DNA of 64,000 bases, taken from NCBI GenBank assembly GCA_010015585.1, contig ML975153.1; one strand, written 5' to 3'. Numbering within the stretch: the first letter of the stretch is position 1; every line of letters starts with the position of its first letter. The notes below the pieces were generated by a model that searched no databases, had not been told where the DNA came from, and saw only the letters and a list, made by a program, of their open reading frames with translations. The position numbers were made by a program, and so were the translations under genes. This document shows, piece by piece, positions 9,098 through 64,000 of the stretch. The DNA is from Eremomyces bilateralis CBS 781.70 (Eukaryota).

Positions 9098-10086
9098 CTA
9101 TAGGATGGTGCACTTCTTCTTCTTCTTGGTGGTCTTCGTCAAGGCGGCACGCGTGGCATGCTCGAACACCTCACGGACACCATCGTTGGTCTTTGCGGAG
9201 CACTCGAGGTATTTGACAGCACCGATTCGCTTGCGGACTTCCTCTCCCTGCATCATGTCAGCATTAGGCCGGAGCATTGCCGGAGCCAACGGATTGACGG
9301 CGGAGGGGTGACACGAACCTGTTCAGGGGTAACGGGCTTCTGCGAAGTCTTGTGGAGTTCCTCGATAGTCTTCTGATCGAAGCGGAGATCCTTTTTGCAA
9401 CCGACGAGGATGATGGGCAAGCCTTGGCAGAAGTGAAGCACCTCGGAGATCCACTATCGATGACATAACAGTTAGTGCAAGCTTCGAATAGCTACAAGTG
9501 AGCGATAAAGATGGAGAGGGAGTTTGTGTATGTATTCCGATAACGAAAATGAATCGCACCTTTTCCTGAACGTTGTCGAGAGAGTCGGGAGAGTCAACGG
9601 CAAAGCATATCAGGATGACATGGGAGTCGGGATATGAGAGCGGTCGCAGACGGTCGTAGTCCTCCTGGCCGGCCGTGTCCCACAGGGCCAGTTCAACGTG
9701 TTTGCCATCGACCTCGACATCGGCAACGTAGTTCTCGAAGACGGTGGGCACATATACCTAAAGAGATTGCAGTGTTAGCTGGAGCTCCTTGCCTAATGGT
9801 GTCCCAAATTGCGGTAATGTCCGATTTGGGTGAGGAGACGTGTGGACGCGTGGAGGGCTCAAGAACTTACCTCCGGGAAAGTACCCTTGGAAAAGACACT
9901 ACACGATGAAGATTAGTCTCTTGTCCAGCTCTATCTCATGGATGCATAACGGGCCGTATCGATCACTGATGAAAGGGGTGGATGGAAGTCGATGAGAGCT
10001 TTCGAGGATGGAACTCACATGAGCAAGCAGGTCTTCCCACAAGCACCATCGCCGACAATGACGAGTTTGCGACGGAGTTCCGCCAT
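9098..10086 (-). CDS. RHO1: Rho1 small GTPase
   Basis: [50 protein letters not shown], polybasic tail and CAAX box CTIL. Four introns. Confidence 0.97.
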
Positions 10087-12358
10087 CTCTGGTGATGGAG
10101 AAGAGATTGGAATGGGATGGAAAAGAATTCAGACGAATGGAGGTTATGAGCGAGGAAAGTGGTTGATGTAAATTGTGGAAAGTCAAGCAGGAGACGGAGA
10201 GCGGTGGGTGGTGGTGGATATGGAGAGGGAAGTGTTGTTGAAGGGGATCTTAGTTTGGGTGTGGAGTGTGCAGATGAAAGATTTCAAGTGTTGGAACAGA
10301 ACGGAACGATTGCTGTCAGAGCAATTCGCAAGACGCAACCTAAGTACCGTAATATTACTGGGGATTAGCCACCATTAGGCTAGACCTAGGGTCACCTAGG
10401 GCCACCGCAGCCAACTGGTTCCATTTTGAGGGGAAGGGGGAGATAGAGCCACACTGCCAGAGAGAGCCAGAGAGCGGGGAGGGGAGGGGTGCCGCGGCGG
10501 ATGCTGCTGGTCGCTGGGCTGTGACTCTGGGCTGTGAACTGGCTCCTAGCTGGGGTGTTAGGCCGTGGCCTGCGAGGCGGGAGCCTGTGCAGTAGTTCCC
10601 TGTGTAGACAACAGCGAGTGCTTGGCTTTGAGTTCAGAGTTCATATCTCTGGTGCTCCATTAGCCAGACAAGACTGGCGACTGGCAACTGGCAACTGACA
10701 TAACAGACAGGCGACAACAGTAGTACCTTCCTACCTAGTTTCTACATCCTCTGTCATATCTTGTTTCTGTACTGGTACCTAGCCTTCTCAACAGCCCACA
10801 CACAAAGAGCTTCGGAAAGTGAGAAGCGGAGGACTGGTCAAGGCCCAAGGGTTACTGCGGCTGTGCAAGAGAATGGCCGCAGCACAGCGGTTCAAGTGGA
10901 GTTAGGCTCATTGAGGCTCAGGATAAAAGCTGACATTCTTGCTGCACTGCCAACGATCACTTCAAGTTTTGATCCCATTTATGATATCACCGATCAGGTT
11001 GTCAGTTGTCACATCACAGAACGTTGGCAACTTCACGTTGCTCTGTTCTTGCGCCTGGAGATCGTGCCAGGAGCGCTGGCTTAAACTCTCAGGCTTAAGC
11101 TCCCTGTCCCTGTCCCTCCCCTCGCCAACGCCACAGCCTCGTGCAGTTGAGTGGTTCTGCAATCTGCATGCGCTGATCATCCTACTCTGGACTTCTATTA
11201 TTCTAGCATGAGTGGGACCCTGGCTGAGTTCTGTGCATGAGTCTATGAGATGATACACGCATCGTATACTGTCTGATGGGACCTCATAACCATCAAAGGA
11301 TAATAGAAGGGACGGAGCTCACGGCGGATATTCACTAAGGGTGCTGGAGACGCAGCCGTGAGCAGATGAGACAACCGTTCAACACCGGTATTTGTTTGAC
11401 TGTACTCTGTAATATTGCAATGATTTGATATGTAATCTGTATGGCTGTAATATTGATTCTCAGCTGTACGTCCACCCCACCCAAGCTGTTGCCTGTTGAG
11501 TCCCGACTCCTAAAGGGGGGCGGCCAACTCTCACAAAGGTCAAGTCTTGAGGATGCCCGCATTCTTCTGGACTTTATTTGAACAATACAAAGGTGGAACA
11601 TGTCGTCTTTCATTCAATGGTTAACACTCGACAGGTTCTTTTGACAAGCGTAATGGGCCCGGACTGCCTCGACAAACATGGTAATCACGTGCTCTTCAGG
11701 ATGAGAGCCCCGTGCACGTGACTCTTGTCCTTCTTCACCAAATGATCAAAGGACCTATCGTTGGCTAAGACAGATATATCCCCACATGGGCCTCGCTGAG
11801 AGGCCTGACGGGCGTATGAATCTCTCTCTCTCTCTAAGACAGATATATATATACATGTGTCAAATGTCAATTGAATAAGAAGAATTGTCAGGATCATTTC
11901 CAGTTTGATCTGAGATTGTTGATCAGATTCCATCGATCAACTACGTGACTTGAGATTACCGATGCAAAACGCCACGCTAAAAGACACAGTCATGCGCTAG
12001 GCTCTTGTATATGCAACCATTCCATGCTGCACCGTCTTCACGGTATTACGTACTTTCCAATCAAAGTAACAGCTTCGGTGTTACAAGATGAGGCAACCTC
12101 TATGGTTGTTGAGCCGCAGCTTGGCGACCATGCCATCTTCTCGAGAGGCGGAGAAGGTTCGCCTGATTGTTCGACACACAAGCTAGGACAAGGCATCTCT
12201 CAAAGATGTACCCTGCCATCATGTAGGTCTTATCACTTGGACTATCGACGGTCCCTGGCCCCTCGTGGGAGCCAACATTGGCTGAGCGCGACCTTGTCGA
12301 GACTGTGCCCGAGTCGCACTGAGCTCAACCACATCACACCACGGAGGAGGATCCCCCA

Positions 12359-14448
12359 TCATCGCACGACAACGGCGATGACCAAGGCCAGGAACATGGC
12401 CCATTGGCCGTTCTGATTTCGCTGGATTCCCGCACCGGAAGCTCCACCCTCAGAAGCTGTTGGGGACGCGTCCTCGGGGTTACTGCTTGGATCAAACTCG
12501 GCGCCGGACACGTGGGCAGAGCCAGGGAGTAACGGGGCCGGTAACGTAGAGGCCGTAGTCGAAGCTGTGAGGAGAAGGGAGTTAGATATAGTTGTTGAAT
12601 CGGACAAAGTCAGTGTGATGGGAGTAGATGCGTGGTTAGGACTAAGCTCAAAGATGCGGAGGGGCAGGGGGACCTCAGAGCAGGTGCCAGCCGAGACTTA
12701 GGGGGATGGAAATGACTAGGAAGGCATAGTAGTGGTGGACAACACGGGAACTGTAGATCATAAAGTCTAAGAGTAGCTGCTTGAAGAAGCCGTTTGTGAG
12801 GTTTCCTCAGAGTAGATGTGCTGGGGGCAATTGGTGGAGGCAATGGGATCTCTGTGACAAGGGCTGAAGAATTGGGAGCTAATGCCGTATAGGCATATGG
12901 TGTGGGGATCATGATTGTGGTTGGTATGAAGGGACACCCAATGTACCTTGCCAGGTAGCTCTTGCGGACAATGGAGGAGAAATGGAATCAGAGAGTGTTA
13001 TCATGCTGGCTGCGGTGGGGGAGGAGGTCGCTAGGGAAGCTGGTGCTGTCGGCAACTGTGCTTGTAGAATGGGGTGGTGATGGAAAGAACAGGGGAAGAT
13101 GGACTGAAAATGACCGTACCTGTTGGGCTGAGCGTGGTAGCGGAGGAGGGAGGCAGTGAGCTAGAGCTACTTGGCCCCTTAGTCCCCAGTCCCACTCGTT
13201 TCCCATCAAAGTCGAAGAGGGCATAGACGTTCTTGAAGAACACATCGCCCACAAGCCACTGGCCTTCGTCGAAGGTCTGACGGCCAATGATGTAGCTGAA
13301 GCATTTGCCATCGTTCGCCCCGCTTGGTCGTCCGACATAGTCCTTCGGGGAGATACCGAAATTCTTGCCGTCGATCTGCAGCTGAACAATCTGCCTCGAC
13401 GAACACGGGATCAGGAAGTTCTCGCCATTTTGACTGGAGCCCGATATCAAGGAGTGGAACTTCACCGCATCCGGTTCGGGAAGCAAAATGAAAGAGGTCC
13501 CGGTATCAAGGATGACCGAACGACCAGTGAGCCCAGCGGTTTTACCATCGACCGCAATGTCGTCCACGGCGACCTCCCAAAATCCATGGCGATTGGTGAT
13601 TGCCGACGCGTACGTGAGATCGCCGCTGTATCTGGAGCGGTCCGGAGCGCCGAAGTTCAGGACCCCATCATTGGTTCCCCCATCCACCGCTCGCCACAAG
13701 GTCACGCCGTACATCTTCGCCGGGATCAGTTTCTGCGTTGCTAAAACGTCCATTACGGTTGGAGCGTTGATGGTGCCGGGATCGGAGGACGTATCCGCCC
13801 GGCCGAGTCCAAGAATGCCGTCCATTGGGTAGGAGAAGAACTCCTTAGATACTTCCTCGGCCAAACCGAAGGTTAATGGGACAGAGAACCCAGCGAATTT
13901 GGCGGTATCGCTGACAAGTACACCGCTCACCGTGCCAGTGCCGTATTTGATTTCAAAGCCACCCGTTGTTACCTTCTCCTCCGTTAGCATCGAAGGTATC
14001 GACCGCATGTGGATACGGGATTCGTACGTACAGTTAGAGAACTCGATTTCTGCGGCCCATATGTATTGTGAGAATTGCACGCCTGGTTTGTACAAGCAGC
14101 ACTCATAACCCATGTGTTTGAAGCGCCGGAGTCAACCAGTAGATGGTAGACATCCGGACTCGATCCAAATTGGAACTTCGCCATGTACGAGAAGTCCGTC
14201 CCATCTTGATCTATGCCAATGCTGTTCTTCGTCGATGGTTCAGCAGCGCTTATTATGTTATATTGGTTCGCTCGTGGTGACACTACTCGATGTATCGGTA
14301 TTCGGAGGTTGACGATATCGCCCTTAGGTACGCTGATGATACCCCGTCTATGAGATGGAGGCTCACTGCCCGGTTCCGCATAGGGATAGAATGCCGTGGC
14401 ATATGGTATCAGAAGCCCAATGGCAAGTGCTGCCCATGTCGGATGCAT
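12359..14448 (-). CDS. Secreted, probably GPI-anchored pepsin-family (A1) aspartic endopeptidase, CtsD/yapsin-like
   Basis: Signal peptide MHPTWAALAIGLLIPYATA, catalytic LVDSGAS and ILDTGTS motifs, GDVFFKNVYALFD. Intron 13973-14031 and an inferred long intron 12565-13119 lead to an S/T-rich exon ending in a hydrophobic tail (WAMFLALVIAVVVR*). Confidence 0.88.
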
Positions 14449-16765
14449 TATCGTAGTTCTATGAGTATCGCATTACCGATCTTATGGGCGGGGTGGATTG
14501 CGATTCCACAGCTTCGAGGATATGATCGGGGTCTCGAAGAAATATAAACCGAGAGCAAAACTCATGTCGCGTCCAACTGGGTGCAAGCAATTAAGCAGTC
14601 TTAGCAAGGCAATCCTTTTATTCTAGTTTCCATTGCTCGAATCGAGGACGACTTGGAGGGATCGATGTTCAGGGTCGGATCCAAACAAAGAATGGAAAAG
14701 CTGCGGTACAACAATCGAATACGACGCAAAGTCTAGTAGCGGGGGAAACAATGCAGGAAATGCAGGAAACGCGGGGGACGATAAAGAACAAAGGCCACAG
14801 TGCTTCTTCGCTTTATGCTATTGATGGGAGATGTTTGAAGATGCGTGATAACTGAGGTTGTCAAACACAACATGAGGTACGTACCCACCATAGACAGGCA
14901 GGTGGTGCATGTGGACACTGGACTCGAGACGCTCAGCTTCAACTTTTACGACTCCAACCCTGCCATAACTCCACTCGGCTTCAAAAGCGGCTGGATTCGA
15001 GAGCCAGGGCTTATGATAAATGACTATTATTGGCGACACATCGGCGAGAGGAGCAAGTCGGCCAGGGGCGGTACATAGTACGCAGGCTGGGGCATAGAAG
15101 GCTTAGGCGCTTGGCAGGCGGGCAGGATTGGCGTCCAGCCATCAACATTCGACTCCTTTTCGCTGCCGATCTGGGACGAATCCCGACAATTGATGATGAC
15201 AATCCGCATGGACAGAAACACTGGTGACTGAAGGTTCTGGGTTTACCGTGAAATCAGAAAAGTCAAGCGTCAAGCGTCAAGACACAGTCAAGGGCGATTC
15301 AACCCGACTATTCCCTCCGGTATTCCGCTGTTTGCTAAGGGTAAATACTAGAATGTCGAATGGACGATGTTGGTAAGGGGAAAATACTGACCGTAATTAT
15401 ATGTGGTACAAGCATAGGCAATTATGGTACTCCTTGATATCGTATAACTTATACCAATATGCATGAACTTGAAATTGGTATACTTATCAGTCTTAACACC
15501 ATTCTCCAAACCCACCTACATCACAGTTGCGCCATGCTGGCGGAAATCGGAATTGACCCATTGATGAAACGGTGGAGGACGTTTGTTTCACTGGGAATGG
15601 CTATCTTTGTTCCCAATTCCCAAGGTCCTCAACCATCTCATTTCTCAACAAAGTCAACAAGGGGTTGCGGATCCGGGGGTTGAAATCAGGGTACAATTCC
15701 GGCCCCGATCAGCCACAACCCTCAGGTGGGACTAACGCTGTCTAGATTTTGGAGTCTACTAATAGAGTATCGTCAATTCGTCATGAACAGAACAAAAAGT
15801 CAATCATGGGGTTTTCAATTCAATTACTATAATGGTAGACAGCAGTATCAAGCCATTGTATGGAATAACCCAGTGCCAACGGTGGATTCATTAGGCGGTT
15901 GAATGAGGCATCGTATGAGACACCACCATCGATAAGATTCCCGCATCCCGCATATTGAATCTCCTGACCGAGTGTCAGGATCGCTTCGGAGATAGGAGTA
16001 AGGAACCCCAGACATAACAGGTAATTCAGCCAACTGAACCAGGATGCACTATCGTTTATTAAGTCCGATCTCGTCCCCAAGCGCGCGAGGCGGTCAAGAG
16101 CTCGAGAAAAAATGGGTGATATGATTTGTCTACCTGAGCTTCGAACTTCGAACCACCGTGGACCGGACTCGTTCTCCCTATCGGATCCCGAAGCGGCGCG
16201 TCATTTTTGGTGATGCTTCGTCCGCTTCTTGCACGACTCGTCGGACAGGGAACCGGGGAGGAAGTAAAGGGTTCCGCGTGGACGGGACCGCTGCTTTAAC
16301 AACACCACACACCCAAGTACTTAAATACGTCGACCCCTCGTGTCTCGCGGAGTCGCAGATGATCTCATGATCTCATGATCCATTCGGGAGAACGACTGGT
16401 TACCATCCCTCTCAAATCTCATTCATCGGGTTGAGCCGTTGAAGGAGCTCAGTACTTACCTATCATATATCTTCAACTTCGCCTCCTCCCCAAACCCTTG
16501 GAAGCTCAGGCTGCTTAGCTTGATTTCCCCGCATTCTTTGACCCCTTCATGTTATGGGGCTGCTAGCTTGTGCATATTGATTATCACTGAACATTGTTGC
16601 TCGTCGGTCTGGACTCCGGACTGCTCCTTCACTCAATTGTCGTCAAGTTCTCAAGTCCTTCCTTTGCCTATTAATTGGCACTCTGCCCTGCCGTTCCCCC
16701 CTTTTCGACATCCATCCGCCCTCTCCATTCCGATCCGGATATCATAAATAAGCAGGAGAACCATC

Positions 16766-31091: not shown

Positions 31092-31556
31092 CTCGTCCGA
31101 CAAATGAGGGGAGGGTTTCAAGAATGATGTTTTCGAATTACTTTAGGCAACGGATTTAGGATCCTTCAATTTGAAAGAAGTATTAACACTGGTGTGGGCG
31201 GTAAGATAGCTTATTATTCTATTATTGAGATGTGAGTTTGATATCCTGACGTTGAATGTTGGGGAAGTTGGCGGCGCGGCTTCCACTCATGCCAACCTTG
31301 ACTGGTCCTGCATGGATGTGTTGCGGCCATATCCCTGTAGTTTGCCTGCAAAGAGTAAAGCTCCCGGTTATATAATTCAATTACAAATCAACTATCTGTA
31401 CATTACGTATGTAATCACGTCCATCCATCACATGTATCGGGGAGCAGTTCGGTTTAAACGTCTTGATGGATTGTATCAAAATGCGTACGGAGTATCCGAA
31501 GGCCAAGACTTAACCTAAACATGCTTCAAAACTCCAACATGCTCTAGATAAAATCT

Positions 31557-45779: not shown

Positions 45780-47099
45780 ATGGCGGCTTATTCATTTAAA
45801 TATCATTTGGTTGGGGGTTATAAAGGTATATCAAGAGCTGCGTCGTTCAGTGGAGCCCGGAATCCCGCTCCAAGGCAATCAAGACTTTCTTTCATTGCAG
45901 GGAAGCTTGTTCCCTTTTCAGCACACCAAATTCGCTGGTATATAGAGGGGCAGAGGTTTGCATTTTCAACCGAGAACCTTCTACACTCCTCGAAATGCAA
46001 GATTGTTCTCCCGCCGGCGCGGCCTCTGGCTCTCCAATCCTACCAAATCCGATGCACGGCGCTCTCCCCTCGACACCAGTCCACGGCTGCTCCTGCACAC
46101 GGTTCCTCCCTTCCACCCTATCAACCACCGACCAATGGTCTTCTTTCGGTCCTACCCCCATCCCTCATTCCCTACGCCGAGCTCATCCGCCTGGACAAGC
46201 CCACGGGGACCTACTATCTATTCTTTCCATGCCTCTTCAGCACCCTCCTTGCCGCTCCCCTCGCCACCCCCATCACACCCCCCTCCACCGTCCTAGCAAC
46301 GACGGCGCTTTTCGCTACCGGCGCTCTCATCATGCGTGGCGCGGGTTGTACCATCAATGACCTCTGGGATCGGAATCTAGACCCACATGTCGCCCGTACG
46401 AGGCTCCGACCGATTGCTCGCCGTGCCATCACCCCGTTTCAAGGTGTGGCCTTCTTCGGGGCGCAATGCCTTGCGGGATTAGGCGTCCTGGTGCAATTCC
46501 CCACGGAATGCTTATGGTACGGCATCCCCAGCCTGCTGCTCGTGGGGACGTATCCGCTCGCCAAGCGGATCACGCACTATCCTCAGGTCGTCCTGGGCCT
46601 CGCATTCTCCTGGGGTGGAATCATGGGGTTCCCGGCGCTGGGGGTCGACTTGCTGTCGAATCCAAGTGCCCTCCATGCCGCCGCTGCATTGTATGCGAGT
46701 TGCGTGGCGTGGACCGTGGGGTACGACATGATCTACGCACATATGGATATCAAAGATGACAAAAAGGCGGGAATCAAGAGCATCGCGCTTCGCCACGAGA
46801 AGGAGACCAAGGGGGTGCTGACTGGCCTTGCCGCTGTGCAGGTCGGGCTATTGGGTGCCGCTGGTTGGGCCGTTGGCGCCGGTCCCATCTATTATCTTGG
46901 AACCTGTGGAGGTGCAGCAGCGACGATGGGCATTCAAATCATCAAAGTCAAATTGGACAGCGTTGCGGACTGCTGGTGGTGGTTCAAATGGGGTTGCTGG
47001 TTCACTGGAGGTGCGGTTACAACGGGGCTGCTTGGAGAGTACTTGGTGAGATTCAATGCTGAGGCGCATGAGAATCAGAAGCGAGAAACATCGTTTTGA
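45780..47099 (+). CDS. COQ2: 4-hydroxybenzoate polyprenyltransferase (UbiA family)
   Basis: LIRLDKPTG, MRGAGCTINDLWDRNLD, RTRLRPIA, YPLAKR and YDMIYAHMDIKDDKKAGIKSIA. Start is uncertain (in-frame ATGs at 45714 and 45780). Confidence 0.93.
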   Translation: MAAYSFKYHLVGGYKGISRAASFSGARNPAPRQSRLSFIAGKLVPFSAHQIRWYIEGQRFAFSTENLLHSSKCKIVLPPARPLALQSYQIRCTALSPRHQSTAAPAHGSSLPPYQPPTNGLLSVLPPSLIPYAELIRLDKPTGTYYLFFPCLFSTLLAAPLATPITPPSTVLATTALFATGALIMRGAGCTINDLWDRNLDPHVARTRLRPIARRAITPFQGVAFFGAQCLAGLGVLVQFPTECLWYGIPSLLLVGTYPLAKRITHYPQVVLGLAFSWGGIMGFPALGVDLLSNPSALHAAAALYASCVAWTVGYDMIYAHMDIKDDKKAGIKSIALRHEKETKGVLTGLAAVQVGLLGAAGWAVGAGPIYYLGTCGGAAATMGIQIIKVKLDSVADCWWWFKWGCWFTGGAVTTGLLGEYLVRFNAEAHENQKRETSF

Positions 47100-47205
47100 A
47101 CTGTGTCTATAAATGTATAACATTGAGTATATTTCATCCATTTCCGCCATTCATATGCATTTTTTCATCACAATCATAAACCCAACATCGTGTGCACATG
47201 CTAAA

Positions 47206-48918
47206 TCAGACCCGAAGGGTGCGCAACTGCACCTCTTGAACCGGTGCTCTAGGTTCCATTTGTACGTCCATATCGTCCAAGAGACGTCCTCCTTCTTCAT
47301 CTGTATTTCCGGCTGTCCTCTCAGACTCTTTCTTAACACTCAAGTCTTTTTTAACTGCCACGAAAATCGCCGATCCAAGGATCAAACTTGACCCTATAAG
47401 AGACAGAACTCCAGGCGTAGTACCAAATATGAGCTTGTCGAAGGTCAGTGCGAAGAGCATCTGCGTGTATGTCATATTGGTCGCACGCGAGGACTTTTCG
47501 TACTGCAGCCCGGCAGCGAGGAGGAATTGCTGATTGAACACGTTAGTGCAAGTGGGAAAGAATTCCAAATGTAAGACGAACCATGATAAACCCACAGGTC
47601 CCGAGAAAGATCAGATAGGACCAATCCCTCAGACTACTGGGAAGAAGAAAACCGACATCTGGAAGAGCCATCATCATCACGATGCTGACAAACGTGCACC
47701 AGGTAGCGAAGTAGTTGACGCTGATAAGTGGGTGCGCCCGCTTTCCAATCCACCGGATCGTGGTATATGCACAAGCTGCACCCAAGACACCAAGGAGTGA
47801 CATCCCCACAGCGCTCGCCCGTTGAGCGGGAGTGACATCTTCATAGTTTCCTGCTTCGTGCCCACTGGAGGGCATGGCTGCTGTCCCGTTTGTGGTTATT
47901 GGAGAGACGTCTCCGTTCCCTGCGGCAGGGATTTCCGCTGTGTTGTGCGAGGGGAAGAAGAACGACGTTGGCCGAGCAATGAGGACGACCCCGATGAACG
48001 AGACTCCTGCCGCAATCTGTTCCAATCGAGTAAATGGCTCGTTTATGAAGATGCTACATGCCCAGCATGCTATGCTTGGGGCTAGGAAAGTAATGACCGT
48101 AGCTTCGGCGAGAGGTAGGTAACGGAGGGAATCTGCTTCAGGATTAGGGCCGGAGAAGGTGATCGTACGCTCAACGTTTACATACAGTACTATTTCCTTG
48201 GTTAGCAAACACGTCATGGATGGTGAGGGCATGGCATACCATTCCAAAGACTCCAAAGAACCCTCCAATACCTCGAGCAATAAGAAGGCCTCGAACTTCT
48301 TTGGCTCCAAATGGGAAATGTGGGGTCCTAACCCAGTACATGTATATTGATGCGATTACTACGGTAATACTCATCCGTGCGAAGAGAATCTGTTAACCGG
48401 CTATCGTCAGAGCTGGGTATCGATCAGGAACCTCCATATCTATTACGCACCTGGAATGGATGGAACCCTTTACCATTATTCCCCTCAATTTCTAAGAGTC
48501 GTGTCGTGACATTCATCAAGGTACCAAATATTTGCGCCAGTAACACCAGCCCCAACCCCTTGTTTCTCACCCAGGATGCTTTCAATTTGTCTCGAATGGA
48601 CTTGCTGTATCCTGAAGAGGCAGAACGTGTACCGTTAGCCTCCGGAGTTTCAGTCCACGCACCATGGTTCGGCTGAGATTCGTCGAATGAAAGGTTCGAT
48701 ATCGTATCTGGTGATTGAGAGCGGGGAAGGCCTGTTAAAGGAATGTTTAGGAATGTGTTCCCATCCTCAGTGGATTTCGGCAGGATCTTTGTGGAGGGGT
48801 CGACTGAAGAATGTCGAAAGAATGGGGACTTCACTCGTTGAATCCCGTTGCCCATGATTTCTGGACCTCCCTTCTCATTGTTTTCAGGTTCCGTCCCAGG
48901 TGGCGGAAATATAGTCAT
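47206..48918 (-). CDS. EamA/DMT-superfamily (SLC35G-like) membrane transporter
   Basis: NKGLGLVLLAQIFG, HPFQ|ILFARMSIT, SLRYLPLAEATVITFLAP, YTTIRWIGKRAHPLISVNYF and RATNMTYTQMLFA. Several introns and multiple hydrophobic helices. Confidence 0.88.
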
Positions 48919-51285
48919 TGTGTTTCATTAGAGTCGACAACCAAACGCCGAGTCTACTTCTATATCTCGCCGCAGACGAAGTGAAGACTCGATACCAAGA
49001 AGGAATAGCGATATAAGACGACTTTGAGGAAACCAGACTTGAAGACTAACAGTCTACCTCAATATAAAGACCGACGGCATCAGAATTCAAAATTTGGCGT
49101 ATGACAGATGTAGACGAAGAACAGAAGAAGACTCAGTCCAGTTGAAGGGTAGAGGTATCGAGTAAGCATTAGTTGCATTCGTAAGTACTAGAGTCCTCAG
49201 TCATGGTACTGGCGGAGTCCGCCCGCAATCGGCTTCCATTTGCGAGTCGAGGTTAGCCAGTCCCCGCCTCAACCGGGCCAATGAGAGCGGGGAAATAACA
49301 CTGGATATGTGGGAGGAGTGAGCTGCATCGGTTCTTTAGGTTAGTTTTCTAGTTGATGGGGGGGATGGAATCCATCCAGTATGGTTGGGACGAAACTATT
49401 CCGCCGCTACGAGTGGAACTGCAGCCATGTCGTTTGCCGAACCCCCGAACGGTACGGGACGGGAAAGCCAACAGGAGCCTGATGGCTGAGCGGGGTTGGG
49501 GTTCTGTTTTTACTGCGGCAGCCGGGATTTGGTGACATTGGGCGGGTTGATGCAATAATAGCACGTGACTCCATCACACGGCCAGGCCGCCAGACAACCA
49601 TAGACCTGAACCTCTGATTTCAGTGTGGTTTTTTGCAATACATTTACGCATCATATTTTTGGGGAGAGGGTGTAGGTATGTCTTAGTAAGAAACTTAGTG
49701 TTGCATCAAATGGCTTTTCAGCTAGTCATATTGGCTTGTTACCTATATCATTTAGTACTAAACTGCTAGAGTATTTTATTATCCAATCATATTAGTCCAA
49801 CCACGATTTCACCTTTCTCCCCTCAGGCACAGTGAATTGAATAATCAGAGAATCAGTGCTCCACAAGAGTCAGTTGCTTCCAGACGGTTATGTTTCTATT
49901 CGATCCTGCCCTCCTATTCTACATACGGATATTTTAAATGCGTCCCAATGATCGTTGCCGCTGATATTTGCCACTGATTTTCCTGCTCGAAAAAGCATCG
50001 ATGCCGTAATAATATAGAACAGACCATCGGAGAATAGCATGCATAGGTAGAATCAGAAGAACAGGGTCTTATATTCACTACAGTAACTTCCTAGCTATTT
50101 AGCTGACCGAGAAGTGTTGGAGACAGCCCATGGACCTTCTCGACTGTCGCCTCTGACACCCGATCCGATTGATCAAAGTAGGCGGACAACTGACCTCCGT
50201 CCAAATAACGATGGGGTTCTCGACTTTCTAGATCTAGCCAAATCTCCTAAGAAAACCCGATGGCCCAATAGCTTGCAGATTGTTGCTGTAGGTTGACTCA
50301 TCCCCATACTAGGCACTAAGTTCGGCTCCTGGCAGCTCCGTTGCAGAATGTTCTGTAAAGAATCCTACTCCTCCCCCAGGGACCACAAGTCATAGTGGTT
50401 TTCACTGAGGTACCCTCCTGTGTTCATCACCTAAACGACCAACCTCATCCTGAAGACCAGGTCTAATGAGACCGTTGGCCCTTTGGGCATAAGAATTGCT
50501 GTGTATAGACGTTACAGGGATTGTTTCAACCATAGCAGGCGAAACATCAGTCTCGTTCCCCCTTTTCAGGCGGTTTGGTCGTAGCGAAACCGTAAGAAAG
50601 CCTGCAATTCATCATAAAGGAACTCCGATCAGGTATATGCGGAGCCTCCACAGCAGGCAGACTGAATATTCGCATCTTGTGCAGGTATAACTGGCGCAGA
50701 CATGAAATCCTTTCCACCCTCCACGCAGAAGAATTTAAAGTAGCTCCAGAATCTAGTGGTACTTCCTAGGGCTGCCTGAGTTGCGTGATGGACAATTCCG
50801 AGTGGTTGAGGAGACTTTTACCAGTAAAACAGTCAAAGCAGTCAAAACAGTGTGCGTCAAGAAAACGAAATTGGAGGTCGAAATAGTCCACATTGTTCAG
50901 ACTTAGAGATCATCCGAAGCTCTTCTTTAAATTGACAAAGCTTTCAAATCTATGACTGGGAAGTGGATTGCATTGAGTAAAGGCCGGATGAGATGACCGA
51001 AGGACTAGAATTGCACGCCACTGAAACCTGAAGCGACAGAAAGCTAAGAAACTACATCATTTGTTAGCCTCAAGAGCTACAACTATGTGACAATGACACA
51101 ATGTAAAGAGATGTATACAAGTTTTGAAAATGGAGAATTGGCAAGTTAACATGAGTGAACAAGACAGAACAGACGCCTAGGAGAGATCACGTGCTGTGGT
51201 GATCCAGGATGCATCGATTGAATGACCGCATCAAATCAATTATTTTGTATTTCTAATTCCACTGATATTCCACCATAACGTCGCC

Positions 51286-51884
51286 ATGTCTGCTATATCA
51301 ATATTCTCATCCGTATGCACTATTCCTTTTGCAGCACTGAACCTACAGAAAGTAACCATGCATCACAGGCCCTGCGGCAAACCGCCCGCCCAACCCGTCT
51401 CCTCACATCCCAACTCTCCCGACCGACATGGACTCCTTCCTTTTCCCGCCTCGCACCCCTTCAGGCCCGCCTCCTCTCCGACTCCACGAAACAAGCCATC
51501 AACCAAGCTGTGGCGACCTCGCCGGTCGTCTTGTTCATGAAAGGGACGCCGGAAGCCCCGCAATGCGGCTACTCGCGCGCCTCGATCCAGATCCTGGGCC
51601 TCCAGGGCGTGGACCCTGCGAAGTTTACGGCGTTCAACGTCTTGGAGGACGAAGAGCTGCGGCAAGGTACGGAAGGAGTGCGCCATGCGTTTGGTCCGAT
51701 GGAGTGCTAACGGTGCTTAGGTATCAAGGAGTACACGAACTGGCCGACGATCCCGCAGCTTTATTTGGAGAAGGAATTCGTGGGCGGTGCTGATATCGTC
51801 ATGTCCATGCATCAGGACGGATCATTGGCGCAGCTTCTGGAGGAGAAGAAAGTCCTCGTCCCTGCAGAAGAGGAGAGCAAGTAG
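51286..51884 (+). CDS. GRX5: Mitochondrial monothiol glutaredoxin
   Basis: Presequence, [35 protein letters not shown] and EFVGGADI. Introns 51313-51368 and 51667-51720. Confidence 0.95.
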
Positions 51885-52503
51885 CCTGGTCTCCGTATGG
51901 GCCGTACGCCCAGTGGAGTCGATGGTTCTACTTCTGTACAACATGTGTTGTATACGACGGATCTGTATGCTACGCGGGCTTCAATTTCTCAAACAGGCCA
52001 CCATCCAATCTGCCGAATGACATCTTAGGAATATATTCTTCTAAATGGATTGGAACGATGGGTTCAACACGCAGTGGCATAACTTCGGTTCATAAGGCTC
52101 AAGTCAGGTCTGGGGATATCAGATCGAGAAAGAACGATTCGAAGTCCTAATAGAAGCACGTAATCCTGAACAATAGTTGTCCCCAATGTGCTACAGTCTA
52201 CCAACATTCGCGTATCGCTTGCCTTTTGCACCAATGAAAACCATTGCTCGCCAAACCAGGTCAAAGTGCGTCGTCTTCACTGTGCCGCGACAGAACCGCG
52301 GCGAAGAATACTGATGCATTCGTTCACACCGTCAATTAAGAATCCGAACCCACACGATCTCACCACGACACCGTCGCAATGAGGGGACGACAGCAGCGGG
52401 TACTCATAGCGCAATTCATCGGAACCTTTCCGAGATTCCGCAAGGAGAACTGACTCATAGGACACTTCCAAACTACCAAGGAGCCTTTCTGTTCACGTCC
52501 ACT

Positions 52504-55391
<2,888 letters not shown>

Positions 55392-57266
55392 GACGACCGT
55401 TGGGTCGGATGGAATCCGAGTCGATTAGCGGAGGTCCAGATGAAGATAGCGATGAGGAGAGATTCCCACAATCTCGGAGGACCCCGGCAACGATATGTGG
55501 AAGGAAAGCCTCAAGATGCGAGAGGCCGATGATGGAAGGAGAAAGTGCAACTCAGCACGACCACGTTCCCGTTCTGGTATTCCAGTGTGAGGGTGTCGTT
55601 GGAGGTGGAGCGAGCTGTGGAGGACGCACGAGGCCAAGGGTCGATCGGAGCGACTGAAGGAGAGAACAAGCCGCCAGTCAGCCAGGGAACTCAGTTGGGA
55701 CTTGGGACTTGGGGCTTGGCTTGAGAATGAGGTAGGTAAGTTGGCTAGTGCGCGTCGTGAGGAAGTGCTAACTGTGCTAAGGAACAAGCGCCTAGTGGCG
55801 ACGTGGGTGAGTTTGACGGTGCAAAGTGGGCTGTGCAGCTGCCCGTCCAGGTGCTATTGATGTATTCGGGGCTGTATGTCGTATTATAGGTTCGTGGAAG
55901 GCCGTGACGAATTAATTAAGGCAGTGCCTGATATGGTCAGGTCGGTAGGGGACGACTCCTGACGAGGATTCGAACTTTTCCTCGAGTTTGCAGATGACGC
56001 TTTGGTGAGAGAGAAAAGGATGGAAAGTTGGTACTGTTCAGGTCCAGTTCCAGTTCGGCGGTTCAGAGGATCGGTGTAAGACTTCAAGTTCCCCGTCCCT
56101 CACACTCTCTACTTCTAAGAACCACCGAAACTGGGACTCGAGATGTCCTAATCGCAGGAGACATCAGTTGTCGCATGTCACTTGGATTTTGTGGTAGAAG
56201 TTATCCAATGGGAAAATGAAGAAGGTTATCAGAACAGAATCAGATATTGGTGGAAAAAGAGTTTATTTACTTGGGCAAGTACTTATCTCTACTCCGTACC
56301 TACTTATGTCCCAGACTCCCAGTTAACTTAAATACAGTAGCACTTACTAAGATACGAAGATCAATAGCAGTGTGCCTAACGACCAGACCAATGAAAGCCG
56401 AGTTTTGCTTCTCGAGTATCCAGGCGCCTCTAATAATCCAGCTGCTGGATGGCGAGATGTAAGCAGTAAGCAGGCACTTTGATCGACCGTAGACCTCCAT
56501 TTGTGGACGATGAAATTTCCACGTCCACAGAACAACTATTTTTAATAAATCCATTGAAGTGAGAACCGAGAGGTGAGAAGTGAATTGGAGACCATCCGAT
56601 GCCGGATTTCTCGTGGTGAGAGATCCATGCCATTCTTGTCTGTTGGGACTTCTGGAAACCGCTGGAAAGGGACTGTTCCGAACGCAGTACGTACGTATCG
56701 TTTTCGTATCCGGCCGCGAGTTAATGGATGCCCTACAGAGTAACGTTGAGTGCTACAGAAAAGACCTCCAAAAACGGAGGTTTCTGACGCCGTTTTCTGC
56801 GGTTTTTCCACCTAGGTGAAACGCCCTCGTTTCGTTACCAGCATTGCCCAAAACTCCCTGGCATTGTGCCAAGCCCTGCACACGCTCACCAAAGTCGGAT
56901 CCCTACTTTGGTCCATCCAACCAGCCCAAACTTGGTGGGGGGCCGATTTTGGACTTCCTGTTTTCAGTTTTTTGACCTTCGCAACTTCAATGCCTCCATG
57001 CTAATTTCGGAAGCATGGTTGGTGTCAAGCGATATGGCTCCGCTGCAGAGCCTTCCTCTGCTTTCGTATATAATAACAACCAATGTCCAGGCCCGTCGCT
57101 TGATGGATCGTTCCGTCGTGCCCGCTTGTCTTCTCTTCTCTTCCATACTTGGGCCGTCGCTCTTTCACTCCTCCAGACGCATCTCCGTTAACCGGCTGCC
57201 TTTGGCTGAATTGCACTTCGCTCTCTTAGGCGACCGCTCTCTACATCGAACTCCGAGACCATCGTA

Positions 57267-59591
57267 ATGGGAAGAGGAAACAAGTCGCGCCCCCGCGGCA
57301 AAAAAGATACGCCATGAGACTCTGCGTACTATGAATCGCTCTATGCCGACGATCTAACCCCAGCATTGCGCCCTATCACAGCCGCAACCGAGAGAGGAGT
57401 TGACTATGTGTGGAAGAAGTGGACAAAGTGTGTATTCGCTAGGATTTCCCAAGTCTATCCATGACTGGCTGTCTATCCCTCTTTGATCAGATACTGTTCG
57501 CTCCGAGTCCTTAACCCGGATGCTCTTGACCGCCTGCGAAACATGAGCGTAGCCGAGATCCGGCGATTCATGCACTGGTATCTGGAAAATCATGCTATGA
57601 CGAAGCTGAATTCCTTCTATGTGCTGATGCGTTACTGGCGGATGATGTACGCTCGGAAGATATACCAAAGCCTAGACCTTGTCATCGCTTCGGATATGAA
57701 AGACGTAAGGCTGTGGTTCCGTCTAGAGACCGTCTCTAACAGCATCGCTAAGGTATGGTTAGTTCATCGGCACCGTCCTTAAAAAGCGAGTACAGTTTGA
57801 GTGAGGGGATGAAAGAGAAGCCTGTCATGAACGTAGACGATGGGTACCTGCTCCTATACCACCATTACGCGCTATCGAACGAATACTACGCACACGAGCG
57901 GGAGCGAGTTCAGCACAGTTTGATTATTCTCTTCATGATAGGCACCTCTGCAAGGCCGTCGACGCTCGTCGAAGGGGGCGGCTACTACAACACAAACGAA
58001 TGCCTTAAGTACAACGATATTGAGATATTCAAGGTTAGAGATCCAAACCTCCCCTCTCAACAAGTCTTTCTTATGAGAGTCCGGCTTCGGCTTCTCAAGG
58101 GCAAAAGAGACAAGGGCCTGCCGTAAGTATTCCATATCCTCTTGAGTTCACGTCGGCTAAGGTCATTAAGGATCAAGGTGGTGTTTTGTGAGCGAGACGA
58201 TAATCTTGCTTTTTGCGCCATTCTGCAAGTTTTCGGGCTCGCCTTCGCAGATGACGCCTTCGACAGTGACTGGATCAAGCAGCCAAAGGACTTGTATACA
58301 TTTTCGGTCCCACCTCACCTGCAAAGTGTGCAGCTACATTGGAAAGAGTCAATGCAGGACATTCCGATTTTCCGGCGATCTGTTTTTCGCGGCGGGCAGG
58401 CGACCATATCACCGAATAGATCGGTTCAGTACATGAATCTCTATTACCAGAACGCGCGACTAGGTAAATCTGCTGGTTTTGCAGATCCTCTCGGGCTATA
58501 CAGCTATCGTAGAGGCGCTGGTGAAGCGATTGATTGTAAGGGCACACTCTTACTCCTACGCTGGCAATCTTCTTACATCTGCGTGCTTCATAACGTTTTT
58601 GAGGCCTTCCTCGCTAACATCATTTCTAGGCGTAGCTGGTTCAGATATGCGGAGCTTTATGATGGGCCATGCTCGTGCAAGTCTCTTTGAGCGCTATTAT
58701 CGTAATAGCGTTGTCCAGCTCGATTCGGTATCCACGTTCCTCGAAGTGCCTTCCAGCGACGCGCTGATCAAACTGGCTGGGCATATGAGCTTGACCCGGG
58801 ATCTCTCTGCGGCCGATTCCATCAACGTCGAGGATTCTGCGGTTGACAGCGACCCTAGTATCCAAGAAATCGAAAAGACGTGCCTCCGGTTTCGGAAAGA
58901 CCTCATTGAAACTTTTGGGAAGATCAAGAACGGAACGGGCACGGAGCTCTACGATACGTACCGGCGCGAGCGAAGCCATTTACGCAGCGAGAGGATTAAG
59001 GTAAAACGGGCGCTCGAGGAAGAAGCCCGGCAACAGTATTTCCGGACCGCCGGGACTAGGTATATCGATGAACAGCGACGCGGCATCGCTCGTGAATATG
59101 TCGAACCGAAACCTATATTCCAATTCGAGGAACAGGAGAGGCTGGCAGCGCTCCTCTTCCAGAATCGAGATGTTCGGCAAGTATCTGAGGAAGAGATTTA
59201 CGGGGTAGCGCATTGCAGCGATGGATAACCTAATCAGCTTATGCGGTCGGCATTTGCCCCGCCATGCGCCCCGTCGTCATCTCTCGTTGCGAGATAAATC
59301 TGTGGAAGAATACCGGAGGAGGATGAGAAAGATTTTGACCCCGACCTCTTCCCTTTGGTGTGTCTGGGCACCCAATGCCTGTTCTGTCTCGGCAATCAGA
59401 GCCTAGGGCCACAGTCTAGAACCTTCGCATTTGCTCGAAAGGATGCTCTAAAGGATCACGTTGAGAAGCATTTACGCCACCACGACTGGTCGAAAGAGCC
59501 GGAATGCCCTCACCCGCTCTGCGAAGAGGCTTTGAGCACTGATATGCACTTCAAGAACCATACGGCATGGGTTCACAACATTTTCTTGTAG
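57267..59591 (+). pseudogene. DUF3435 tyrosine recombinase (Starship captain), disrupted
   Basis: KPVMNVDD…HERERVQ…GTSARPSTLV…CLKYNDI…LLKGKR…LAFADDAF…IPIFRR…LGKSAGF…YSYRRGAG…MMGH…FERYY, with a C-terminal QCLFCLG…HVEKH…CPHPLC…FKNHTAWVH zinc-finger tail. Introns 57428-57490, 57705-57762, 58123-58170 and 58536-58629. In-frame TGA at 57315 and frameshifts near 57781, 59205 and 59310. Confidence 0.85.
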
Positions 59592-60035
59592 CGAAACTGC
59601 CAATGAAAACACTGTTCGGAAAGTCCTTGACTGCCAAGACACATCTGGAGCTTTGTTTCAACCTCCAGATGTGTCTTGGCATCACTCCAGTCTCTTGTCG
59701 CTCCACCTTTCCGTATCATTCCAGACTCCATGTTCCTACTTGCGTTGTCTCATGGGTGTACTGATTTGTATCACACCGATCTCCGAAAATGAGCTCAGAC
59801 GCAGGCAACCTGAGCTTCAGAAAGATATGCATGAACGAGAAATGTCCAATTATGTTGGTGTCATGTACGGTTACGCCACTTGATACTCTGTTCTGTTGAG
59901 AGAGCGTCGGTGTGAGATACTCGAGCGACTGTGGAGCGGGAGTGCTTTCCTCGCGGATACATCAACCGCCGACATCCAATACTGGTGTCTGAACATCCTG
60001 GCGCTTGCAATTGCACATCCACCATCCTAACCATC

Positions 60036-60941
60036 ATGAAAGCGAGAATCATTCTTCTGGGCCTGCGTTTTGCAGCCTCAACTCTAGGAGCCTCGGCTCC
60101 CAAGGACGCTCCGGAAATCCTTCTTGCAGGACCACGACCTCCAGAGACCCCAAATCTTACTCCTCCGACAGGTGCTTCTTCGTTTTCGAAGCCGTACTGC
60201 ATCTCCCAACCGCCCCAAGGTAGCTGCTATACCGCCAAAGTCTGCAACCAAGGGCCCGTAGATCTTAAACCGTGCGATAAATACACCGTCACTTATGACA
60301 AGCATGGAAATCCTCTGGAGGAGGAATTTACAATGAGTCCGAACCGTCCAAGATGTGGGAAACAAGCGAATGGTATCACCTGCGACCCGTAAGTTTGGCA
60401 CTGCGTCTGATATTGAGAGGTTCTAACGCAGAAAGCCATAATGGATGGGTAGTTGTTGTTCAGAGGATGGGTATTGTGGGAGCGACGAGTATATCTGCAG
60501 TATCAAGAAGAAATGTCCTGCTTGTCCCACTGAAGGTGGTTGTCAGTCAGGGGGTAACTACAATTTCACGCATCACCAGCTTTTTAGAGGCATAAATCAG
60601 ATATCTAACTGTGAACCAGACTACTACCCACGGCCTCCGGAGACTTCTGAAAATAAATGCGGCCCACAGTTCGGTGGAAAGCTGTGTGATGTCCGTTTCA
60701 ATACAGGACCATGCTGCTCAAAGGAAGGGTAAACCCGACCACCCCTTGAGGCAGAATTCCGCTGACCAGTGAATAGTGAATGCGGCTAAACGGCAATAGA
60801 TATTGTGGGTCTTCTTCACAGCATTGCGGTACAGGGTGTCAGAACGGGTTAGTCAACTCGCAAGACACAGAAGACGACAGATATTGATTTGCACAAGACT
60901 TTGTACCGCCTAGGAGGAATGCTGAGGGTTGTCCAGCATGA
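60036..60941 (+). pseudogene. Secreted Cys-rich protein with two hevein/CBM18-like chitin-binding modules and an in-frame stop
   Basis: Signal-like MKARIILLGLRFAASTLGA. Modules CGKQANGITC…GSCCSEDGYCGSDEYIC…GCQ and CGPQFGGKLC…GPCCSKEG|YCGSSSQHCGTGCQ. Introns 60389-60431, 60729-60799 and 60848-60913. TAA at 60439-60441 is in frame after splicing. Confidence 0.75.
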
Positions 60942-62514
60942 GCGGATCTGCGGGAGCCTGCATATTAGATGATAGATCCATTGAGAAGCGCGGACGCGGA
61001 CGGACCACACTTTCAGAATACCGAATCTCTGATTCCAAATTCAGGAACCGGTTTGGGCAGATTCCTGGAACAATGGTTGGCATCATGTTCTAGTTCGAGA
61101 CCAAGACCGATGCCAGGGGCATTAACGAGGAAGCACATGGTGCGGGAAGTCGCTAGGCGACAGGATTGCTCAATGACATGACGTCAATCTAGGGGACCAT
61201 TAATATGCAAGAAAGTCGTCATTGCTACTGCCATCCCCCCCGGTCCATCCATCAGAATTCTGGAAGCGATGCCACGACTTGGGTTTTGCCCAAACCACAG
61301 GAACATTCTGCCTCATTTCAAATCGATTATCAGACTGGTCCACGGTTTTAGGAGAGAAGCAAGTCCATTTCTGAGCATGTTTGTCAATTTTGCAGGTGCT
61401 CCATGACTTCTCGAACCTATTCAAATTCCTCCCGGAGTCAAAGCACACGGCTCCGACGATAGCTTCATCTTTCGCGGTCGAGGCTATGAGGACTGCTTCG
61501 AGAATTTCTCAGCAGCACAATTGCTTGTGCATCGTGCTAAACTTTTGACTGGTTACAGAATCATATCAGCTTTTATTCCGAAGTGCGCGGACCGGTTGAC
61601 GCTTACATGTGTCGACACAGCTGGCATCTCCGCTCCCGTTGCGGACACAATTAACGTACTCTCGTTTCGTCGAAGCACACTGTTCCGAATTGGCGCAGTT
61701 TTTTAAACCGTCAGTGCTGTTGTCGGGACTTGGGGCGCAAGGTGCTCGTACCATATTCAAGACGACTTTTCAAACCCAGAGGATCCGACACTCCACCATC
61801 TGCGCCAGGAACTGCACCGCCCCTGTTCTCACTTGCGTTTCGATTCCCTCTAGGGCTACGGATCGCATCCTTCTGAGGTTTGGCATCCTTTCTGTTGACG
61901 CTTTTTTCCTCGTCGCTTTCCTGGGGCGAATGCGCGGGCGTACTCGTCGAGGCTCCTCCACGGAGTCCTATGCGTCTTGGATCGTTGGGCAGCATTTCGT
62001 TGTTTAGGCTCTAAACAGGCGTGCAGCAGTATGGAAGAGAGATGATTGTAACGCGAAGGATCGGGTGGTTTCTTATGGACCATTGGAACGGAGAGGCTCG
62101 GGTAGTTAAGGCTTTCAGAGTTTGCATTATATGACATCTTAATGATATATCCCTGATTTCCGGGTTTTTCGGCATCTATCATGAATAGAAAGGGAAGAAG
62201 TTTGATCATGTGCTACTGAGCGAACGAAATTGGCGTTGACATCCAGCTTTCATGCGGTCCCTGGAAATATACCAATGGTTTTACATGGAATACTGAATGA
62301 GATTTGAATTTGTTCGCATGATGTTTTATGGTAACGGCGCGCAAATTCTGCCTGAACAGAAACGAGAGCGCCGACGATGCATGACGTCACAGATAGACAA
62401 TCTGCTGACAGAGAGGCAAAGTCACTTCAGAGTTCAGAAGCACGAAGGTCTACCAAACCATTCCAATTCAGTCTATAGAAGGATTACTGCGGACTTCGTG
62501 TTCCTGTACTAAGG

Positions 62515-63816
62515 CAACTAAGCCAAAAGTCTGCGCACAGACCCCATTCTCACCTGAATATCTCTACACCCACCCCTTACTTTGACAATCAATAACTTTA
62601 CCAAAATGAGGTCTTTTGGCACAAAAATAAGTGGTAATCGAGGGCCTAATAAGGAGTTATCGGCCGCTTAAAGAGTTGGATTGTTCAGGCTGCTGAAGAT
62701 GGGAAACCAAAGACTGAAATCGCGCGGAACTTTCGCGTCTCTAGAAGCGCGGTGCATGGGACTCTAGAGAGGTGGGAAGAACATCAAACCACTGTATCTT
62801 TACCCCGTGAAGGGTGTCCCCATAAGCTATCACGCCCTGACGAACGGCATATCGTTCAAATCGCGCGTCGATTTCCTAAAATGGAGTATGGAGAGCTCCT
62901 CGCAGGTATTTTGTACCTCCGCATTTCTAGGAAGACTATCTACCGAACCCTTAAGAAATATCACCTTACGAAATGGCGAGCGAAGAAGAGGCCTTACCTG
63001 AAGCCCCACCACGCAAAAGACCGCCTCCAATTTGCCCACGAATTCCTTGAATTCGACTTCTCCCCGACCCACTCCATGGACGAGTGCTCGTATGAGAAGG
63101 GGGCGGGCGGTAAGCAGGTATGGGTATGGCGACTGTACCACGAGGCATATGATCCGCAAATGGTAGAGCCTAAGACCTCTGGCAAGGCCATTTCACAGAT
63201 GATATGGGGCTCAATCTCGCGTGATGGGAGGTCAGGCCTGGTGATCATGGACCGCGACGAAACCTCCGCAAGACAGGGCTATTCCGCGAAATCCTACATC
63301 GCTACGTTAGAGGAGGGACTTCTCCCTACGTACGAACCCGGGGATATTGTTATCCAGGATAACGCAAGGATCCATACGGCTAAAATCACCCAAGAATGGC
63401 TGGAGACGCACGGCATTTGGGTCATCGATTGGCCGGCCAATTCCCCAGACATCAACCCCATCGAGCATATATGGCATCTGTTGAAATCAAAGGTCCTAGA
63501 GCTGCACCCCGAATTGAAGACGATGGGCGCCTCGGAGGAGGCACGGGAGGCCATGAATGCGGCGTTAAAGGAGGCGTGGTGGGCGATCCCTCAGGAGACG
63601 ACCCGAGAGCTGATCGACTCAATTCCGCGACGTCTACGGGCGGTAATCAAGGGAAAAGGGTGGCATATGAAATATTAGATATTTCCCAATTAAGAAATCA
63701 AAAAAGTAGACTGAATTTGCATTTGTATGTGTTTTGCAGCGTATCTCAAGATACGGTGTATAGCGATTAGATTTGGTGATTTTCGGGGGTGTGTGCAGAC
63801 ATTTGTCTACTTAGTG
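62515..63816 (+). mobile_element. Tc1/mariner-superfamily DNA transposon, about 1.3 kb, with imperfect terminal inverted repeats
   Basis: Left ACTAAG-CCAAAAGTCTGCGCACAGACCCC versus reverse complement of the right end CACTAAGTAGACAAATGTCTGCACACACCCCC. TA follows the right end (63817-63818). The left terminus is degenerate. Confidence 0.8.
62606..63678 (+). pseudogene. Tc1-type DD34E transposase with 5' nonsense and frameshift lesions
   Basis: HTH TEIARNFRVSRSAV, then MDEC…IWGSIS…IQDNARIH…WPANSPDINPIEHIW, with 34 residues between the second D and the E. The ATG at 62606 is followed by TAA at 62669 and a frameshift near 62680. Confidence 0.9.
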
Positions 63817-64000
63817 TATCTTGAGCCATGATTTCGCCGTGTTTTGGGAGAGCTTGGCCTCTTCGCAAACATCTTTGAACGTTTTGCCTTTCGGTCAGTC
63901 GTCGTACGCTTGAAAAAACCGGGGTTTTTTGACTGTATCGTACTCCCGGCGCTTTATTTGCCTATCAGGAGTATGAGGGCGTTCCATACTGATAGGAAAT

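Follow-up and report, generated by a model that had tools for sequence, protein, structure and literature searches.

Does the DNA to the right of an RSP5-like gene in Eremomyces bilateralis CBS 781.70 belong to a Starship, a mobile element headed by a captain gene for a DUF3435 tyrosine recombinase? The question was raised by an initial annotation of a 64-kb stretch of DNA from this fungus (the whole of which is here called the window), in which such an element, possibly of a new family, was proposed to start at position 56267 and to run through to the right edge. Here, we report that a mobile unit starts at 56733/56734 and that it is very probably the left end of a Starship-superfamily element of the Tardis family with a dead captain. 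That the block downstream of the captain is the cargo of this element, which would then run beyond the window, is a reading that we hold with modest confidence.

A captain gene points away from the RSP5-like gene

Contigs assembled from sequencing runs were aligned to positions 46001-64000 of the window at 80% likeness. Run X1 is DNA of the source organism; run X3 is from the same organism and was guessed to be RNA; and run X5 is from a related organism (organism C), whose housekeeping genes are about 80-82% identical and whose contigs leave several bins without cover. X3 was taken as RNA from its behavior, with nine intron-like joints at 51.6-55.4 kb, none of which is found in the X1 DNA. These joints lie in a WW-domain gene, except for the first, which is on the opposite strand. 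With three WW stretches (Pfam E value, 1e-36), this gene is called RSP5-like from its WW part alone, and the neighboring captain gene reads inward, away from it, as the initial annotation had said.

The Pfam scan, which covered the open reading frame (ORF) pieces of the window, bore out the claim of a DUF3435-type gene. PF11917 (DUF3435) was matched in three plus-strand ORF pieces, 57755-58126 (E, 4.4e-14), 58352-58690 (E, 4.7e-12), and 58647-59228 (E, 7.4e-30, the best), corresponding to profile positions 2-84, 149-210, and 219-404, respectively, while captain paralogs scored 1.5e-83 and 1.1e-64 against the same profile. Together with tblastn searches of the paralogs P0002-P0005 against the window and with RNA joints, these matches delimit a captain pseudogene at 57267-59591 on the plus strand, encoding a DUF3435 tyrosine recombinase with a C-terminal Cys/His tail, with its ATG at 57267 and its stop codon at 59589-59591. 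Its five exons (57267-57427, 57491-57704, 57763-58122, 58171-58535, and 58630-59591), placed by paralog tblastn and RNA joints, are separated by four introns, all of the GT..AG type. Three of these are given by X3 RNA joints (57704>57763, 58122>58171, and 58535>58630); for the first intron, a paralog joint ends at 57491 and a donor GT is present at 57428.

Over the query stretch 58647-59228 (193 amino acids [aa]), the database protein P0001 (P152DRAFT_447870; 443 aa; on a 1.53-Mb contig) shows 100% identity, and three paralogs from the same genome, P0002 (655 aa), P0003 (670 aa), and P0004 (429 aa), show 78-91%. Several relatives of the captain carry the database names 'C2H2-type domain-containing' or 'FluG domain-containing'. 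In an alignment of 10 proteins, the residues M415, G416, H417, and Y427 were invariant and TSARP, KGKR, and RRGA were conserved. The putative catalytic R, K, R, H, and Y motifs of the captain, which the initial annotation had picked out as TSARP, LKGKR, YSYRRG, MGH, and ERYY, all fall in conserved columns. The C-terminal zinc-finger tail that it had also described was found as a Cys/His tail encoded at about 59330-59588 and is common to 5 of the 10 aligned relatives.

The mobile unit starts at a Tardis-type motif

The left boundary of the unit was located from copies lying elsewhere, in dissimilar flanking DNA. In 6 X1, 5 X3, and 5 X5 contigs, matching sequence starts exactly at 56734, and further X5 contigs start at 56738 (three) and 56760 (five). 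The mobile unit thus starts at 56733/56734, some 470 bp rightward of the start first proposed. At this position, the motif search and the contig ends together define an upstream direct-repeat or target-site-like motif, CTACAGAGTAA (56733-56743, plus strand). The sole exact match to CTACRGAGTA in the window is CTACAGAGTA, at 56733-56742 and on the strand of the captain. The base that follows it is an A, giving TACAGAGTAA, which agrees with the published Tardis upstream repeat, TACGGAGTAA, in 9 of 10 letters. From base composition, about 0.24 exact matches to CTACRGAGTA are expected in the whole window. Since the boundary was found independently of the motif, a chance match within 1 bp of it is very unlikely.

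The distance from the motif to the ATG of the captain is 524 bp, so that a Starship-type captain, oriented inward and about 0.5 kb from a terminus with a Tardis-type direct repeat, stands at the left end of the element, as had been proposed. The intervening 5' leader (56744-57266, plus strand) includes a 463-bp stretch (56771-57233) that contig joints show to be absent from some copies; the joints that mark such deletions, 56770>57234 and 56789>57253, occur in both DNA (X1) and RNA (X3) contigs.

Allowing up to one mismatch, the motif was not found again in 56743-64000, and the window thus shows no compact element with both of its ends inside. Candidates for a downstream repeat with two mismatches, such as CCACGGAGTC at 61958 and ATACGGTGTA at 63751 (the latter within a Tc1/mariner copy), are at chance level and were rejected. 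A tRNA or 5S target was looked for and not found. The exact Tardis 9-mer, TACGGAGTA, occurs three times in the window, at 5570-5578 (plus), 31486-31494 (plus), and 56290-56298 (minus), against 0.22 occurrences expected; 1 of 100 shuffles reached three. The RSP5-like RNA contig ends at 56274, and the copy at 56290 is 16 bp upstream of this end, which fits the published idea of a host regulatory site.

The captain is already catalogued in the Tardis family

The starfish paper (PMC11162782) covers this genome under the code erebil1, as a species with one genome. In the portions of its supplementary tables available to us, erebil1_447870 is entered as a Starship recombinase on scaffold 5 (Table S3) and placed in fam03 together with 475428, 192051, and 140144 (Table S4), so that, of the 15 recombinases classified in this genome, four are fam03; family 3 of starfish is Tardis. 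The starfish positions of the four are 974626 on scaffold 3, 1105199 on scaffold 5 (the captain described here, 1105199-1108054), 208026 on scaffold 17, and 286362 on scaffold 20. A HMMER search with P0003 returned 1,060 representative proteins at E values up to 0.001. Ten of the best full-length matches were looked up by name, and six accessions were then searched in Table S4. All five that were found in the accessible part of that table are fam03, and the sixth accession is absent from it. Judged by its published label and by these nearest relatives, the captain is a member of the Tardis family (starfish family 3). The suggestion of a possibly new family is not upheld, as the gene had already been listed. 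A full-text search returned no paper joining 'Eremomyces bilateralis' with 'Starship'. What was known already is the gene in the starfish catalogue; what is new is its mapped 5' terminus and a Tardis-type target motif in a Dothideomycete.

This copy of the captain is dead

Comparison with paralog proteins and contigs revealed five defects in the captain, two in-frame stops and three frameshifts, all given here on the plus strand. Codon 17 is a TGA (57315-57317) in place of the R codon of the paralogs. At 57780-57785, a +1 frameshift (CTTAAAAAGC here versus CTCAAAAGC in a paralog transcript, from contig comparison) puts exon 3 out of frame. One surplus base at a run of G near 59201-59205, with a paralog contig lacking one letter at 59201, is followed by a TAG (59206-59208) where paralogs have Q. 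Finally, a -1 frameshift at 59309-59310, where two paralog contigs have an extra G after 59309, restores the frame of the zinc-finger tail. An X3 RNA contig (record 13, 59139-60388) shows no differences from the window, and the two 3' frameshifts are therefore not assembly errors; an X1 DNA contig (record 5) crosses the first frameshift without a gap. The public model P0001 starts at a Met inside intron 2 and ends at a frameshift-made stop, and it is therefore a truncated reading. By these sequence comparisons, the captain is dead, being transcribed yet unable to yield a full recombinase, and the element is therefore unable to move by its own enzyme.

Copies of the element fade near the captain stop codon

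The unique-DNA baseline of the summed X1 depth is about 245. In the bins from 56201 to 59800, the summed depth was 911-1,555, indicating several copies; it fell to 252-266 over 59801-62200, as for single-copy DNA, and rose to 7,210-16,663 over 62201-64000, as for a high-copy repeat. Matching to other copies fades rightward near the captain stop codon, and the X5 copy ends at 59591. The first ~110 bp of the element (56734-56842) are present in more contigs than is the gene body: 10 X1 and 11 X5 contigs were counted at 56844, and one to four X1 contigs were counted at the listed gene-body positions between 57403 and 58962. This surplus of 5' ends and the leader-deleted copies suggest that many ends are captain-less or decayed.

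A hairpin with a perfect 19-bp stem (59632-59681, plus strand; fold z score, -5.4) lies 41 nucleotides (nt) past the captain stop codon, close to where copies cease matching. Loose ends of X3 RNA contigs fall exactly at both of its borders, 59632 and 59681, and the hairpin may therefore occur elsewhere in another context. It might serve as a signal for 3' processing or termination, or it might be a feature of the element. The only Rfam match, mir-219, is to this hairpin; it was below threshold (30.8 versus 54.5 bits) and was rejected.

To the right lie a gene for a secreted hevein-like protein and a Tc1/mariner copy

The accessory genes and transposable element that had been placed to the right of the captain were recovered as one secreted hevein-like gene and one Tc1/mariner copy. 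The former (60036-61000, plus strand) is a multi-exon, single-copy, transcribed gene for a Cys-rich, hevein-like (CBM18-like) protein. It was recognized from its signal-peptide-like start, CCS..GYCG motifs, X1 depth (about 252-266), and RNA contig record 13, and it has an intron at 60389-60452 and another starting near 60730. The match to Chitin_bind_1 is weak (E, 0.006) and below the cutoff. Homologs of the exon at 60036-60392 were sought among longer proteins and none was found, which is weak evidence only. The gene is a candidate for the first cargo gene or, alternatively, for an ordinary host gene. Beyond it, 61000-62500 is transcribed (X3 depth, 160-340), with no convincing ORF, no family match, and no match in organism C at 80% likeness. 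Candidate explanations are an untranslated region, a rapidly evolving gene, and a non-coding RNA.

The Tc1/mariner copy (62518-63818, plus strand; ~1.3 kb) was delimited by Pfam matches (DDE_3 and HTH_Tnp_Tc3_2), by depth, and by loose ends at 62517 and 63818. It has TA flanks and imperfect inverted ends that agree at 27 of 40 positions, and its frame of 341 codons from stop to stop has no start before 62881. It is also present in organism C, and its summed depth suggests that it exists in tens of genome copies. It is a separate element, unrelated to the captain. A further run, X4 (labeled as another organism, with a small share of 0.06), gave few contigs of very low depth, mostly on multi-copy parts; these include 56937-57085 and 62743-63818, and two of the eight listed (56937-57085 and 63706-63818) are identical to the window.

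How far does the element extend?

The motif, the orientation, and the spacing of the captain are all as in published fam03 elements, supporting the identification of a Starship end. An element of this kind would start at 56733/4 with a terminal repeat that mimics the target of its family (CTACAGAGTAA), followed by the 0.5-kb leader and the inward-reading captain. As the work on Hephaestus and Tardis would have it, an active captain recombines the end of the element, itself a target-like sequence, with a genomic TACGGAGTA site, and one copy of the motif would be left at each end of the element. Here, the insertion would have landed ~460 bp upstream of the transcript of the RSP5-like gene. The single-copy DNA from 59.7 kb to beyond 64 kb would have arrived as cargo, with the 3' end of the element outside the window, and the copy, its own captain being dead, could move only if another copy provided one. 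The whole would probably be an old, decaying Starship. Support for the cargo part of this account, toward which we lean only slightly, comes from the lack of a second copy of the motif in 56743-64000 and from the gene order in organism C. The organism C contig with the RSP5 region is collinear with the window over 46168-55321 and then continues for 8.9 kb without a match to 55.3-64 kb, and the homolog of the gene at 60.0-60.6 kb is on a different contig. This break in synteny is weak evidence, because gene order is poorly kept at this divergence.

A number of results weigh against a Starship that extends across the right-hand part of the window. The repeated stretch is limited to 56734 to ~59600 (~2.9 kb), whereas 59.8-62.2 kb is single-copy and transcribed and no downstream repeat was found in the window; of the proposal that the element runs through to the right edge, these results support the repeated part. 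The GC content to the right of the captain resembles that of the host region. The organism C homolog of the hevein-like gene is ~84% identical, like the housekeeping genes, and no captain match was found on its contig among the matches listed. None of the Starship accessory genes sought (DUF3723, ferric reductase, patatin, and NLR) was detected among the ORF pieces scanned in the 4.4 kb visible, and no inverted terminal repeats involving 56734 were found in the window. In the published catalogue, as far as the accessible part of PMC11162782 goes, E. bilateralis has 15 recombinases and no elements (Table S8), and 10,212 recombinases are 'solo', versus 559 with element boundaries. These results are accommodated by a possible alternative, to which we give appreciable though lesser credence, namely, that only the 5' terminus and the captain (~2.9 kb) are the element, 59.7-62.5 kb holds host genes, and the Tc1/mariner copy is independent. 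Such a solo or remnant captain could be what deletion or rearrangement has left of a Starship, with cargo and 3' end lost, or it could belong to a lineage spreading without cargo. The end of the repeat at about the stop codon, including the organism C match that ends at 59591, and the host-like character of 59.8-62.2 kb favor this explanation. It is further favored by the excess of 5' ends over captains (10 X1 contigs at 56844 versus four family-3 genes), which fits many decayed copies, and by the literature, in which the existence of 'solo' captains has been left open. However, no downstream repeat follows the gene within the window, and no sharp right-hand end is shared among the best-supported loose ends listed, versus six contigs at the left end. 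In addition, the RSP5 and 60-kb genes are not neighbors in organism C, and known Starships range from 15 to 511 kb, the smallest in the available portion of the starfish paper being 15,020 bp (PMC11162782).

A repeated unit of ~2.9 kb with one intron-bearing recombinase gene is also of Crypton-like size, and DUF3435 repeats were first annotated as Cryptons in earlier work. Nevertheless, a compact Crypton-type tyrosine-recombinase transposon in place of a Starship is very unlikely here, given a DUF3435 recombinase placed in Starship family 3, with CryptonF as the outgroup of that tree, and given that no short repeat pair was found flanking the 2.9-kb unit. Still less credible is a fixed, non-mobile host gene, such as a domesticated recombinase: the captain is indeed transcribed and spliced, but it carries two stops and three frameshifts, has several copies in dissimilar flanks in two organisms, and sits behind a target-site-like terminus.

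Meaning of the mapped terminus

For this species, starfish lists the recombinase and no element, and the mapped 5' terminus gives a starting point from which the 3' end, and cargo if there is any, may be located on the full scaffold. The Tardis-type target motif, previously from Eurotiomycetes, is extended to a Dothideomycete, which supports the view that captains of one family keep to the same choice of target. The broader proposal, in which conservation of this motif spans Eurotiomycetes and a Dothideomycete and the motif marks a regulatory site of the host, is, in our judgment, evenly balanced between true and false. It is likelier than the proposal that family-3 copies in E. bilateralis spread as cargo-less 'solo captain' units of ~3 kb (terminus, captain, and 3' hairpin), which we consider unlikely. 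If true, the latter would mean that a Starship-clade recombinase lives like a Crypton, and it would answer whether solo captains transpose alone. In other respects, the copy is ordinary and decayed, and nothing found in it points to new cargo biology.

Comparison with known systems

Among known systems, CryptonF elements resemble the repeated unit in being tyrosine-recombinase elements of a few kilobases with one intron-bearing gene, and the ~2.9-kb unit here is of that size. They differ in having repeats of 4-6 bp and a recombinase outside the Starship clade, forming the outgroup of the starfish tree, whereas the gene here is DUF3435 and fam03. For the Starship superfamily itself, the mechanism has been demonstrated experimentally with Hephaestus of Paecilomyces variotii. 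According to the consulted parts of that study (PMC10104507), the captain HhpA is essential for mobilization, the end repeats derive from a sequence in the element that resembles the target, and members of a family keep the same target preference. The section of the starfish paper that cites this captain calls it 'necessary and sufficient' (PMC11162782). Unlike the element described here, Hephaestus belongs to family 2, has the target TTAC(N7)A, and has an active captain.

Closer to the present captain is TGJ70084.1 of Orbilia oligospora, a fam03 captain among its nearest full-length relatives (33% identity; E, 1e-62), which an annotated element of 87 kb carries at its 5' end. That element differs in its repeats (TATTTG/TATTGG), in its inverted ends of 16-17 nt, with none found here, and in the distance of its captain from the end, which is 1.85 kb. 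With TATTTG in the Orbilia element, the Tardis-type repeat is not universal in fam03.

The closest parallel is Tardis h1 of Aspergillus fumigatus. In the parts of the report available to us (PMC12153272), it has a mean length of 81.7 kb, with copies aligned across 14 genomic regions, a predicted target TACGGAGTAG, and a conserved direct repeat of 9-11 bp with the consensus CTACGGAGTA; its motif is over-represented in the A. fumigatus host genome. In the accessible part of starfish Table S7 (PMC11162782), Aspergillus elements of 27-113 kb have tacggagtaa as the upstream and tacggagta as the downstream direct repeat. Of 29 occurrences, the 27 listed there are all from Aspergillus, and the three Aspergillus captains checked, each of them fam03, have the upstream repeat at a distance of 326-768 bp. 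The size and copies of Tardis h1 have been described, whereas the present element is known from its left end within the window; Eremomyces belongs to another fungal class, and the captain here is dead. The nearest representatives of this captain are 32-37% identical (HMMER), and its likeness to Aspergillus captains is that of the family label. Set against these differences, the Eremomyces element and Tardis h1 with the Aspergillus fam03 elements are alike in captain family, in the upstream repeat (TACAGAGTAA versus TACGGAGTAA, nine of ten letters), in captain orientation, and in spacing (524 bp versus 326-768 bp). They are alike, too, in the over-representation of the motif in host DNA, seen here as three exact copies of TACGGAGTA where 0.22 would be expected.

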